Below are positions 1 to 2,010 of a DNA stretch of 2,010 bases, one piece after another. The DNA is from a virus. Its lineage: Duplodnaviria > Heunggongvirae > Uroviricota > Caudoviricetes. The position numbers and the translations under genes were made by a program. The notes beneath the pieces were generated by a model. That model saw only the letters and a program-made list of their open reading frames with translations, had not been told where the DNA came from and ran no database searches. The first letter of the stretch is position 1. Every line of letters begins with the position of its first letter. The stretch is from the IMG/VR virus record IMGVR_UViG_2671180378_000024; one strand, 5' to 3'.

Positions 1-72
1 TTGATTTTCAATAACCGTTCTGACATCTTCGTCTTTGACCTCTTTAGAGTAACGTTGGGTTTTTCTGCTCAT
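1..72 (-). CDS. IS3-family transposase OrfA-like protein, 5' end only (continues beyond the left edge of the window)
   Basis: The reverse complement of 1-72 reads ATG AGC AGA AAA ACC CAA CGT TAC TCT AAA GAG GTC AAA GAC ... = MSRKTQRYSKEVKDEDVRTVIENQ. A canonical AAGGAG Shine-Dalgarno sits 6 nt upstream of the ATG (reverse complement of 79-84). The N-terminus resembles IS3-family OrfA helix-turn-helix proteins from memory (pattern MSRKTQRYSKEFKAEAVRTV..). Only 24 codons are visible, so the family call is tentative. Confidence 0.5.
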   Translation of the reverse strand, partial: MSRKTQRYSKEVKDEDVRTVIENQ

Positions 73-136
73 TATTAGCTCCTTCTGATGCCATTCTATT
101 TCAGGAAGGATTGTCCGTTAAACTCAGGCTACCTCA
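1..136 (-). mobile_element. Terminal segment of an IS3-family insertion sequence (inferred left inverted-repeat end near base 136; body extends left of the window)
   Basis: Read in IS orientation, the sequence from base 136 leftwards starts TGAGGTAGCCTGAGTTTAACGG..., a TG-initiated terminus about 64 nt upstream of the OrfA start codon. This spacing is typical of IS3-family left ends. Homology of the adjacent capsid fragment to lambda gpE begins within a few codons to the right of this point, consistent with an insertion junction. The exact boundary is uncertain by roughly 10-20 bp. Confidence 0.45.
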
Positions 137-488
137 CGCCGCAGAACTGGCCTGTAAAAACCTGGGTGAAGTGGTGAGCTTTAAAGGCTATCTGGGCGAT
201 ATTGCCCTTGTCGTCTATTCCGGCAAATACACTGACAGCGACGGCACCGAAAAATATTTCCTTGAGCCTGATTTGCTGGTCCTGGGTAACACCAACAATA
301 AAGGGCTGGTGGCCTATGGTGCGATTATGGATCAGGAAGCGGTCAGAACGGGCGCAACGCAAAACATGTTTTACCCGAAAAACTGGATTGAGGACGGCGA
401 TCCGGCGATTGAGTACGTGCAGACGCACAGCGCACCGCAGCCGGTACCGGCAGATATTCGCAAATTTGTTATCGTCAAAATTGGTTAA
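111..488 (+). pseudogene. Major capsid protein, lambda gpE family, C-terminal remnant (about 115 of about 340 residues), 5' truncated, probably by the IS insertion
   Basis: The translation ..AELACKNLGEVVSFKGYLGDIALVVYSGKYTDSDGTEKYFLEPDLLVLGNTNNKGLVAYGAIMDQEAVRTGATQNMFYPKNWIEDGDPAIEYVQTHSAPQPV.. aligns by eye with the C-terminus of lambda gpE as recalled (..AVKDLGKAVSYKGMYGDVAIVVYSGQYVENGVKKNFLPDNTMVLGNTQARGLRTYGCIQDADAQREGINASARYPKNWVTTGDPAREFTMIQSAPLML..), with roughly half the residues identical, down to the stop. The frame is closed by a TAG at 45-47. The only in-frame start upstream of the homology is a TTG at 111, which lies inside the inferred IS terminus. Homology to gpE begins near base 137-141. 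Confidence 0.75.
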
Positions 489-500
489 CGGGGGGATTCT

Positions 501-836
501 ATGGACACTCCATACATTGAGTTATTTGCAGGTAGTCAGCAGGTATCCACGACGCTGGTACATTTTGCTGCTGATGCTGGCGTTATTCAGGAATTTACCC
601 CGCTGATGCTGGCGGAAAATGGCGAGTTTAAGCCGTGGGATGGTCAGGAATCTGGCAAGGCTGTTTATCTGACCTCGTACCCCGTGGACACGTCGACGCA
701 GAAATCAGCACAGTGCTACAAGACGGGGATATTCAATATTGCCGCCGTTAACTGGCCTGAGAGCGCCGACACCGACGCGAAAAAATGCGCCGCCTTTGCG
801 GGTTCTGGCGTATCCGTTCAGCCGCTGGCGCGATAA
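501..836 (+). CDS. Head decoration protein, lambda gpD family (complete, 111 aa)
   Basis: ATG at 501 preceded by a GGGGGGA Shine-Dalgarno (490-496) with a 4-nt spacer. The translation ..TPLMLAENGEFKPWDGQESGKAVYL..STQKSAQCYKTGIFNIAAVNWPESADTDAKKCAAFAGSGVSV.. aligns with lambda gpD as recalled (..[70 protein letters not shown]). Length matches lambda gpD (110 aa). It starts 12 nt after the capsid-fragment stop. Confidence 0.85.
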   Translation: MDTPYIELFAGSQQVSTTLVHFAADAGVIQEFTPLMLAENGEFKPWDGQESGKAVYLTSYPVDTSTQKSAQCYKTGIFNIAAVNWPESADTDAKKCAAFAGSGVSVQPLAR

Positions 837-848
837 GCAGGGGGAACG

Positions 849-1262
849 ATGGCAACGAATGAAAGTATCATGACGCTACCGCTGGCGAGTAAATTTAAAG
901 CCGAAGCGCGGGCAATGGCTGACAGAGGTTTATCAACCTACGAGGCCGTATATCAACTTAACAGCCTGGAAGAGAAGGACAAGCCGCGCGCTGATGCGAT
1001 TATGGCGCTTCATGAATCTGACGACTATCAGCCGCTGTTACGTGCAATGGCAAACGTGCCTTGTATTGATGTTGATACGGCTAAAAACATCCTGAACATG
1101 ACCATAGAGCAGGAACGCCCGAAGGTTGCACCAGAGCTTACCGCAGCCTTTGAAAACTTTATGGACATGCACAGCCCACAAGCCGTATCAGCTGGCATGG
1201 CATACGATGGCAGAAACCCGGGCGATGACGGCGACATCGATCGCATACTGAAAACCATCTGA
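849..1262 (+). CDS. Hypothetical acidic protein (137 aa), function unknown; co-oriented and translationally close-packed with the gpD-like gene
   Basis: ATG at 849 preceded by an AGGGGGA Shine-Dalgarno (839-845). It starts 12 nt after the gpD-like stop and ends at a TGA (1260-1262), immediately followed by a rho-independent terminator. No in-frame stops; E. coli-like codon usage. The protein has a marked excess of Asp/Glu over Lys/Arg. I do not recognise a family. It is not similar by eye to lambda gpFI, gpW or gpFII as I recall them. Confidence 0.75.
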   Translation: MATNESIMTLPLASKFKAEARAMADRGLSTYEAVYQLNSLEEKDKPRADAIMALHESDDYQPLLRAMANVPCIDVDTAKNILNMTIEQERPKVAPELTAAFENFMDMHSPQAVSAGMAYDGRNPGDDGDIDRILKTI

Positions 1263-1267
1263 GACAA

Positions 1268-1290
1268 GGCCGGAGAAATCCGGCTTTTTT
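1268..1290 (+). terminator. Rho-independent terminator downstream of the capsid-module genes
   Basis: GCCGGA (1269-1274), GAAA loop (1275-1278), TCCGGC (1279-1284), followed by TTTTTT (1285-1290). Begins 6 nt after the ORF3 stop. The T-run is on the + strand only, so it is unidirectional. Confidence 0.7.
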
Positions 1291-1291
1291 G

Positions 1292-1364
1292 CGGGTCCTT
1301 TCCGGCATATGGACCTGTTACGGGGCGGAGACCTCGCGGATTTTCGCTATTTATGAGCCTTTTC
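1292..1364. other. Lambda-type cohesive end site (cos): cosQ-like block, cosN, and the cosN-proximal (I2-like) part of cosB
   Basis: 1292-1305 CGGGTCCTTTCCGG is identical to the lambda cosQ-region motif as recalled, and lies the same 17 nt from the cohesive-end sequence as in lambda. 1335-1364 CGCGGATTTTCGCTATTTATGAGCCTTTTC matches lambda CGCGGGTTTTCGCTATTTATGAAAATTTTC at most positions. Downstream of about 1365 the sequence diverges from lambda cosB. Confidence 0.85.
1323..1334. other. cosN 12-nt cohesive-end sequence GGGCGGAGACCT (lambda: GGGCGGCGACCT); predicted terminase nick sites flank this segment
   Basis: Context TTACG|GGGCGGAGACCT|CGCGGA compared with lambda TTACG|GGGCGGCGACCT|CGCGGG as recalled. 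There is a single C-to-A difference at base 1329, position 7 of the overhang. Nick positions are inferred by analogy, not observed. Confidence 0.8.
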
Positions 1365-1428
1365 AGGGGGGTGGTGGTGGTTTTGTTGTTTGATCTATCT
1401 TTATGAATGAAAAGGGAAAGATGCAAGC

Positions 1429-1466
1429 AATACACCAACCTGAAGCAGTAATTAAGTTGGTGTATT
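1429..1466. repeat. Perfect 11-bp inverted repeat (AATACACCAAC ... GTTGGTGTATT) with 16-bp spacer, ending 1 nt before the terS ATG
   Basis: 1429-1439 AATACACCAAC is the exact reverse complement of 1456-1466 GTTGGTGTATT. It lies between cosB and the first ATG of the Nu1-like ORF. It could be a protein-binding palindrome or an RNA hairpin affecting translation initiation. Confidence 0.5.
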
Positions 1467-1467
1467 A

Positions 1468-2010
1468 ATGAAATCTCATCTGATGAACAAAAAAAACATG
1501 GCGAAAAGCTGCCGTGTAAGTGCGACAGCGTTCGACAAGTGGGGAGTAACTCCCGTTGAGCGTAAAGGCCGTGAGGCGTTTTATGATGTTGCCAGCGTGA
1601 TAGAAAATAGGGTTAACAATGCAATTAGCCAGCTTATAAACGACAAAGGCGAGATTGACGATGATGAACTTTTACGAGTCAGGATCAGATTACTGACAGC
1701 ACAGGCAGAGGCGCAGGAACTTAAAAACGATCGCGATCGCGGTGACGTGATTGATACTGAGTTTTGCCTGTACGCGCTTTCAAAGCTGGCGAGTCAGATT
1801 TCATCAATCATGGACATCCTCCCGCTTACTATGCAAAGGAGCTTCCCACAGATTACCCCCGCCATGCTGGACAGGCTTAAAAGGGAAGTGGTTAAAGCCT
1901 GTAATGCCAGTGCCAGAGTTGCCGACAACCTCCCACAGATACTGGCTGATTACTTGAAAGAAACAACCGGAAACGTACCGGAAAAGTTGCTACAGAAGAA
2001 AGGCGAGTAA
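1468..2010 (+). CDS. terS: Terminase small subunit, lambda Nu1 family (complete, 180 aa; alternative start at 1483)
   Basis: The translation ..NKKNMAKSCRVSATAFDKWGVTPV..LLTAQAEAQELKNDRDRGDVIDTEFCLYALSKLASQISSIMDILPLTMQRSFPQ.. aligns with lambda Nu1 as recalled (MEVNKKQLADIFGASIRTIQNWQEQGMPV..RLTRAQADAQELKNARDSAEVVETAFCTFVLSRIAGEIASILDGLPLSVQRRFPE..). Length matches lambda Nu1 (181 aa). It lies about 135-150 bp downstream of cosN, as Nu1 does in lambda (about 190 bp). Stop TAA at 2008-2010. No obvious Shine-Dalgarno upstream of either candidate ATG. Confidence 0.9.
   Translation: MKSHLMNKKNMAKSCRVSATAFDKWGVTPVERKGREAFYDVASVIENRVNNAISQLINDKGEIDDDELLRVRIRLLTAQAEAQELKNDRDRGDVIDTEFCLYALSKLASQISSIMDILPLTMQRSFPQITPAMLDRLKREVVKACNASARVADNLPQILADYLKETTGNVPEKLLQKKGE

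Follow-up and report, generated by a model that had tools for sequence, protein, structure and literature searches.

Satellites of the phage-inducible chromosomal island (PICI) type spread virulence and defence genes among enterobacteria, and the mode in which they capture a packaging motor decides which phages spread them. The model Gram-negative PICI is EcCICFT073, whose first cohesive-end site, cos1, has been proven functional and carries a private cosB (PMC6092414, PMC6739421). Among cos-type PICIs of Escherichia coli, the Rpp mechanism alone has been worked out experimentally; its logic retains the helper's small terminase subunit (TerS) as a bridge to the large subunit, TerL (PMC6739421, PMC9026076). 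In the pac-type staphylococcal PICIs, the Staphylococcus aureus pathogenicity islands (SaPIs), a satellite small terminase and the helper's large terminase redirect packaging to satellite DNA (PMC6092414). terS homologues have also been noted in some Gram-negative PICIs (PMC6092414), and SatelliteFinder counts small terminase genes among PICI core components. Here, we analysed a 2,010-nucleotide (nt) stretch of DNA (the window, positions 1-2010) from IMG/VR virus record IMGVR_UViG_2671180378_000024, in which a cos site at 1292-1467 is followed by a terS gene. We found that this site is cos1 of an 11-kb PICI satellite of the EcCICFT073 family and not, as a preliminary description made from the DNA letters had implied, a phage cos. 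Within the site, bp numbers count from the first base of the cosN overhang (bp 1 = window 1323).

The gene context identifies the element. In E. coli O26:H11 strain 11368, a region 99.9% identical to window 137-2010 lies in an 11-kb island between roxA (ycfD) and phoQ, which is listed as a PICI at 1619447-1630554 (Fillol-Salom 2018 supplement). The island encodes an integrase, an AlpA-type regulator, an Icd-like protein, a RepA-family helicase, a single-stranded DNA-binding protein, PerC, and capsid and decoration proteins, and continues with a 137-aa open reading frame (ORF), cos, terS, and one further small ORF. The attachment (att) core of the ycfD-phoQ site, GGACATATTT (Fillol-Salom 2018 supplement), is found at the phoQ-proximal island end. 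Strain CFT073 carries EcCICFT073 at the same roxA(ycfD)-phoQ site and in the same gene order. In a pairwise blastn comparison, the two islands are 93.8% identical from upstream of the capsid gene (position 18847 of locus L001) to window 1363, a shared segment that runs through the genes for the capsid and decoration proteins and the 137-aa ORF, takes in cosQ and cosN, and stops 41 bp into the left end. Homology returns only at an inverted second cos ∼150 bp past the terS stop. The replaced cassette consists of a private cosB and rppA (144 aa) in CFT073 and of a different cosB and a 180-aa terS here.

Given this context, it is highly improbable that this cos belongs to a complete lambdoid phage whose packaging specificity is new. 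The cos-terS layout does resemble a lambda-like left end. However, terL is not adjacent: terS is followed by a 93-aa ORF, then by the island end and phoQ. Capsid and decoration genes, not lysis genes, precede cos, and the annotations of the O26:H11 11368 island, with its PICI core genes, and of EcCICFT073 show a unidirectional int-alpA-replication module and include no terL, portal, tail, or lysis genes. Gene context refutes the phage assignment in every complete genome examined. A match to at least 80% of the window, and with it the TerS-type cassette, is present in ∼490 of 5,426 complete E. coli genomes. Enterobacter, Citrobacter, Kosakonia, and Superficieibacter hold related elements with the same gene layout, and some of these sit within prophage capsid genes.

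The cos site and its gene comprise the following features.

1293-1305, plus strand: cosQ, with the core GGGTCCT at 1293-1299 followed by TTCCGG; the same as lambda GGGTCCTTTCCGG
1323-1334, plus strand: cosN, a 12-nt cohesive end GGGCGGAGACCT with the variant A at 1329 (bp 7)
1335-1363, plus strand: proximal cos segment, "I2-like" and equivalent to lambda bp 13-41, containing the invariant CGCTATTTATGAG at 1345-1357 (bp 23-35)
1373-1390 (bp 51-68), plus strand: candidate R3-equivalent GGTGGTGGTTTTGTTGTT, proposed from register conservation as the main TerS recognition element
1402-1408 (bp 80-86), plus strand: TATGAAT in an AT-rich spacer, with aTGA.T kept across satellites
1428-1443 (bp 106-121), minus strand: conserved block CAATACACCAACCTGA, with CAATACACC(A/C)AC at bp 106-118 in all TerS-type satellites
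1456-1466, plus strand: right arm of an inverted repeat (11 bp, perfect) whose left arm is 1429-1439, ending one base before the terS ATG
1468-2010, plus strand: terS, a 180-aa Nu1-family small terminase (Pfam PF07471 Phage_Nu1, 81.3 bits; cutoff 30)

The left part of the site is that of a lambda-family phage, as the preliminary description had recognised. cosQ is identical to that of lambda, its core lies 30 nt before the first overhang base (the lambda spacing), and it is kept in all satellites compared. By homology, the top-strand nick is predicted before 1323 and the bottom-strand nick after 1334. The sequence TACG/GGGCG at the left nick (stroke) is kept across nine TerS-type satellites, and CGCTatTTATGAg of the proximal segment is kept in nine satellite lineages. 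When 1280-1470 was searched by blastn against 50,697 phage records, PhiR5_1 matched with E = 1e-21 and lambda with E = 2e-12; the resemblance to lambda-family cos is, therefore, real and far beyond chance. Aligned in register and gap-free, identity to lambda is 11/12 at bp 1-12 and 28/35 at bp 13-47 and then drops to 13/28 at bp 48-75 and 13/35 at bp 76-110. Together with the end of EcCICFT073 homology at 1363, this drop bears out the break that had been placed near 1365. The interval to terS is also shorter than in lambda, as had been claimed, with the ATG (1468) at bp 146 in place of bp 191; in N15, terS starts at bp 89.

We then considered what the 180-aa protein is. TerS aligns with lambda Nu1 over the full length, with the last 40 residues included (36% identity), and its closest phage relative is N15 gp1 (44%). 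By domain, it is 28% identical to lambda Nu1 over the DNA-binding part (residues 6-55), 44% over the middle, and 30% over the last 50 residues; the corresponding values for N15 gp1 are 54%, 43%, and 29%. An earlier suggestion that the N-terminal DNA-binding part diverges from lambda and that the rest is conserved thus holds for the first half of the statement and is not confirmed for the second, above all at the C terminus. The DNA-binding domain shares with N15 a 5-residue wing deletion, which leaves a shorter wing, and the AFDKWGV recognition-helix region; judged by its sequence, it is of the N15 type. It is also the part best kept between the E. coli and the Enterobacter/Citrobacter satellite proteins (74%, compared with 26-30% for their C termini), and the Kosakonia and Superficieibacter homologues have the same layout. 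A search of PDB sequences with TerS returned nothing meaningful, and the lambda Nu1 domain was not matched either. A first scan of genome contigs with the single protein found no relatives, and an alignment-based scan found six loci, four of which are marine phages.

In Nu1-family small terminases, the C-terminal domain is the part that binds the cognate TerL, whose gene normally comes directly downstream. The best phage match to the last 77 residues of the satellite TerS is PhiR5_1 (53%), and a closer relative emerged from a profile-free scan of 1.8 billion representatives: protein P0121, which is 71% identical there and has the same extra tail, TTGNVPEKL..KGE. P0121 is the TerS of a satellite-like island (L038), in which this C terminus is fused to a PhiR5_1/21-type DNA-binding domain with a PhiR5_1-type R3-R2-R1 cosB upstream; the cosN of that locus (L038, 5780-6585) reads GGGCGGCAGACG. 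The type of TerS DNA-binding domain and the type of cosB, therefore, travel together and independently of the C-terminal type, which is the pattern expected if the N-terminal domain of TerS reads cosB.

These comparisons bear on the main rival to an autonomous small terminase, in which the 180-aa protein acts like an Rpp: it would make no contact of its own with TerL but would heterodimerise with the helper's TerS, block recognition of the phage cosB, and steer packaging to the satellite cosB, with the helper TerS bridging to TerL. The position of the gene, exactly that of rpp in a cassette swapped with cosB and rppA, speaks for such a mode, as do the Rpp precedent itself (PMC6739421) and a C terminus far from any known phage TerS (≤53%). 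However, TerS and RppA share no BLAST similarity, and the Nu1 alignment runs through the C-terminal 40 residues, which Rpps lack (PMC9026076). Rpps have 139-154 aa with a winged helix-turn-helix and a coiled coil and without a TerL-binding tail; the present protein has 180 aa and a Pfam Nu1 match. Moreover, retention of the C-terminal type at 71% in L038, a satellite whose DNA-binding domain is of another type altogether, suggests that this part has a function of its own. We regard the Rpp-like mode as quite unlikely.

To locate the element that TerS might recognise, we lined up nine TerS-type satellites gap-free from cosN. A G/T-rich block, GGTGGtgGT.TTGTTgTT, stands in the same register in all nine, which are distinct and come from Escherichia, Enterobacter, Citrobacter, Kosakonia, and Superficieibacter, with the form GGTGGTGGT(G/T)TTGTTGTT at bp 51-68. 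Across these genera, the block co-occurs with the N15-type DNA-binding domain of TerS. R3 occupies bp 50-65 in lambda, with contacts at 55-63, and bp 48-60 in N15, where it reads GAGGTTGTTGTTT (Murialdo and Feiss, PMC9026076), so that the satellite block coincides with the R3 position of both phages. At bp 48-75, the window matches a lambdoid prophage with an N15-type TerS domain (L033, which reads GATGGTTGTTGTTTTATC) at 22/28 positions in register, and GTTGTT repeats lie upstream of N15-type terS genes in N15 itself and in two marine phages (L027 and L028). Because of this coincidence of position, the prophage match, and the shared repeats, we place the best candidate for the principal recognition element at 1373-1390.

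The preliminary description had instead pointed to a single R-like element at 1404-1423. That candidate was rejected: with up to three mismatches allowed, the window contains no match to the R sequence of lambda, and 1404-1423 is conserved among the E. coli copies only and not in the Enterobacter, Citrobacter, and Kosakonia relatives, where 1373-1390 is the conserved block. The integration host factor (IHF) consensus likewise has no match within one mismatch; with the 13/28 identity at bp 48-75, these are the features of lambda cosB that the site lacks. A non-lambda cosB paired with a non-lambda TerS DNA-binding domain implies a packaging specificity different from that of lambda, as had been proposed. 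The specificity appears to be N15-like rather than new, given the 54% identity of the domain to gp1 and the 22/28 match of bp 48-75 to a prophage with an N15-type TerS. At bp 51-59, the phages carry (GTT)3 and the satellites (GGT)3, and VQAF in the recognition-helix region of the phage proteins corresponds to (A/V)TAF in those of the satellites; this difference could mark a private satellite specificity.

Further elements may lie downstream. Read in reverse complement, the CAATACACC block looks like the R3 block, and in several lineages the flanks match as well; 1428-1443 is possibly a second, inverted R element analogous to lambda R2. This is a secondary hypothesis and individually weak: in ten lineages, the statistics of the inverted repeat between the two blocks give z = 6.1 in L020, z of ∼2 in five lineages, including the window, and z < 1.5 in four. 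The right arm at 1456-1466 is partly kept in E. coli relatives and absent from other genera. It could be an R1-like copy, forming a protein-site pair with 1429-1439, or part of an RNA hairpin that occludes the ribosome-binding region of terS; as RNA, the repeat has a folding energy of -14.5 kcal/mol (z = -4.2). As part of the same secondary hypothesis, the R3 block, 1428-1443, and 1456-1466 recall lambda's layout of R3, inverted R2, and R1. TATGAAT at 1402-1408 has two possible roles, a -10-like element or a bend.

N15 and EcCICFT073 frame these features. N15 shares the type of TerS DNA-binding domain and the lack of an IHF consensus, and its G/T-rich R3 resembles the candidate element in position and in its GTTGTT repeats, although only 10/28 positions agree in register at bp 48-75. 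It differs in its cosN (GGGCGGCGTCCG), in the position of terS, and in a TerS C terminus that is lambda-like, unlike that of the window; moreover, the window may hold extra inverted or direct copies at bp 106-144, unlike N15 with its single R3. EcCICFT073 shares the family, att site, and gene order and has a private cosB at the R3 position and an inverted, phage-like cos downstream; it differs in encoding a 144-aa Rpp rather than a Nu1-family TerS and in carrying ACCACCACC at bp 55-63 rather than GGTGGTGGT at bp 51-59. The two motifs are reverse complements of each other: TerS-type islands have the one at window 1373-1381, and Rpp-type islands have the other at, for example, 15612-15620 of locus L009. 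Both lie at the R3 position, although TerS and RppA are unrelated.

We next examined the overhang. cosN is identical at 11 of 12 positions to the canonical GGGCGGCGACCT of lambda, phage 21, phi80, and PhiR5_1, and the sole difference is the A at 1329, where lambda has C; EcCICFT073 lacks this A at bp 7. The difference had been noticed before, with the caution that base 1329 might be a sequencing error. It is a real base. The exact 40-mer around it (1310-1349) is present as a single copy in each of 100 complete E. coli genomes, including O26:H11 11368, in a megablast search that detects a 40-mer centred on 1329 only when the central base matches. An exact-pattern scan of IMG/VR found the 40-mer in seven contigs, of which five represent the same element and two (L030 and L033) a different entity; one IMG/VR contig is 100% identical to window 112-2010, insertion sequence (IS) junction included. 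The variant is not peculiar to the element, however, as the lambdoid prophage L033 also has GGGCGGAGACCT; its TerL and lambda gpA share 97% identity, with the whole nuclease domain included. Because the same cosN co-occurs with a lambda-like TerL nuclease in such prophages, the A7 form is very probably compatible with lambda-type cutting.

In the 16-bp symmetry frame described for cosN (Murialdo and Feiss, PMC9026076), the dyad centre is the pair formed by bp 6 and bp 7, which lies at the greatest distance from the two nicks. C7A of the window is, therefore, related by rotational symmetry about this centre to G6T of satellites L018, L019, and L024. Among the satellite relatives, cosN takes the forms GGGCGGCGACCT, GGGCGTCGACCT, AGGCGGCAGCGT, GGGCGTCAGCGT, and GGGCGGCAGACT. 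Self-annealing is not impaired by A7, because both ends of one molecule derive from the same site. The concern that the variant overhang would create a sticky-end mismatch is thus minor: the ends are mutually complementary, and phages whose nuclease is lambda-identical use the variant too.

The prophages that share A7 (L033 and L030) also resemble the window at bp 13-47 (27/35) and in their N15-type TerS DNA-binding domain, and their type is present at a query coverage of at least 80% in 22 complete E. coli genomes. They differ in being complete phages with the order Rz, cos, TerS, TerL, portal; their TerS is 42% identical overall to that of the window and has a different C terminus, and they read (GTT)3 where the satellites read (GGT)3. 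Positions 2071-4760 of L033 form a mosaic, in which TerL equals lambda gpA at 97% except in its first ∼33 residues and TerS has its own C terminus. L033 cleanly illustrates a joint replacement of the TerS C terminus and the TerL N terminus.

Taken together, window 1292-1467 is the cos1, the start and end point of packaging, of a PICI that encodes its own TerS; this TerS would probably bind the private cosB and recruit the TerL of a helper. During late growth of the helper, a dimer of the satellite TerS would bind the element at bp 51-68 and perhaps also the inverted copy at bp 106-121. Its Nu1-like C-terminal domain would recruit the helper's lambda-type TerL, which would nick cosN 12 bp apart, and satellite concatemers would be translocated into helper proheads. 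Packaging would run rightward into terS and terminate at the next cosQ and cosN in the concatemer. The C-to-A change at bp 7, at the dyad centre and far from both nicks, would be tolerated by a lambda-type TerL. We infer binding, cutting, and transfer from these comparisons of DNA and protein sequence. The proposed logic is shared with SaPIs, in which a satellite TerS likewise works with a helper TerL; SaPIs differ in headful (pac) rather than cos packaging, in using unrelated proteins, and in needing a separate Ppi to block the helper TerS.

Several observations weigh against this model. No resident helper with a matching TerS C terminus or TerL N terminus was found. The PhiR5_1-type terminase was present in 28 genomes, the satellite-bearing accessions listed include none of these, and its C-terminal match is only 53%. 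The Stx1a prophage beside the O26:H11 11368 island uses an HNH/HK97-type terminase. At bp 48-75, the site matches N15 itself at only 10/28 positions in register. An AlphaFold2 model of TerS built from a 9-sequence alignment had a predicted local distance difference test score (pLDDT) of 57 and a predicted template modeling score (pTM) of 0.29, too poor to confirm a winged helix. Finally, the A7 copies look clonal, and the window copy, with an IS in its capsid gene, may no longer move.

Some of these points would also fit a relic, that is, a vertically inherited, immobile island of the O26 lineage in which cosN is a dead site and its C-to-A change a product of drift. All 100 genomes have the same A7 40-mer, once each, which fits clonal descent, and sister lineages with a 90% identical TerS carry the canonical cosN; the IS within the capsid gene and the failure to find a cognate helper point the same way. 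On the other hand, terS is undamaged, conservation of the whole 1.9-kb region stands at 99.9% in the genomes listed, prophages whose TerL nuclease is lambda-identical use the same cosN, and all cos blocks conserved across genera are intact in the window. The capsid gene is, moreover, dispensable for EcCICFT073 transfer (PMC6092414). We consider a relic unlikely. Two side observations concern the Stx phages. The Stx1a prophage of O26:H11 11368 lies ∼12 kb upstream of the island, with its HNH endonuclease and HK97-type terminase genes at 29093-31969 of L037 (1587093-1589969). Other Stx1a phages encode a Nu1 that matches lambda's over the N-terminal 60 residues shown.

We suggest, tentatively and with some doubt, that TerS-type cos PICIs represent a second, Rpp-independent route to hijacking lambda-like packaging, in which the satellite would bring a complete TerS whose N15-derived domain has shifted to a private (GGT)3-GTTGTT R3. 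If so, packaging would be independent of the helper's TerS, and cosB with terS and cosB with rpp would be interchangeable modules bounded by cos1 and the inverted cos2. Such islands would also provide a natural test of the proposal of Murialdo and Feiss that bridging to TerL is all that Rpp requires of the helper TerS. The site is of a kind already known, PICI cos sites in which a private cosB is combined with the cosQ and cosN of the helper. A literature search brought up no experimental work on a Nu1-type TerS from a Gram-negative cos PICI and no description of an N15-type Nu1-family TerS in the rpp slot of an EcCICFT073-type island, of the conserved element at the R3 position, or of the A7 cohesive end. 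The candidate element at 1373-1390 and the natural cosN variants could serve as reagents for testing terminase specificity, and their main value is as a natural experiment.

Beyond cos1, the islands carry the second, inverted cos noted above. It has the canonical GGGCGGCGACCT and lies on the minus strand at 21876-22100 of L001, ∼45-190 bp past the window's right end. Its cosB is phage-style, with three related repeats (GTCAGATCCGATCT, AGAAAGGATCTGAC, and TCAGATCCTTTCT), and its best phage match is PhiR5_1 (76%). EcCICFT073 (cos2), L020, L021, and L038 share this arrangement. The Enterobacter and Kosakonia relatives L011-L015 and L023 lie inside the major capsid gene of a lambdoid prophage, so that a truncated E is followed by FI, FII, Z, U, V, G, T, and H, a helper-embedded arrangement that has been described for PICIs (PMC10111431).

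Upstream of cosQ, the window holds five further features.

1-136, minus strand: end of an insertion sequence, outside cos, which truncates the satellite capsid gene in the window copy
137-488, plus strand: 3' remnant of a lambda-E-type major capsid gene, 116 codons (Pfam PF03864, E = 1.6e-16)
501-836, plus strand: lambda gpD-like head decoration gene (Pfam PF02924, E = 1e-17), the counterpart of EcCICFT073 c1500
849-1262, plus strand: 137-aa ORF with function unassigned; a 137-aa ORF is in the same position in CFT073 and O26
1266-1290, plus strand: hairpin and T-run resembling an intrinsic terminator (AAGGCCGGA/TCCGGCTTT with TTTTTT), directly upstream of cosQ

Over their length, the first 136 nt are 96% identical to sequence that 75 Stx phage records contain and that recurs at thousands of places in E. 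coli. Satellite copies in complete genomes all match the window from 137 onward only, and the capsid gene is intact (351 aa) in O26:H11 11368 and CFT073. The IS/capsid junction is absent from the complete E. coli genomes listed and present in IMG/VR contig L029. The 137-aa ORF has no Pfam match and is kept in Rpp-type and TerS-type satellites alike; the non-coding stretch between it and terS measures 205 bp. A promoter and terminator consensus scan of 1200-1520 called nothing, neither the 1266-1290 hairpin nor any sigma-70 promoter. The hairpin is GC-rich, with a folding energy of -14.1 kcal/mol (z = -2.5), and is kept in E. coli relatives and CFT073; if it terminates transcription, terS would need its own promoter or antitermination.

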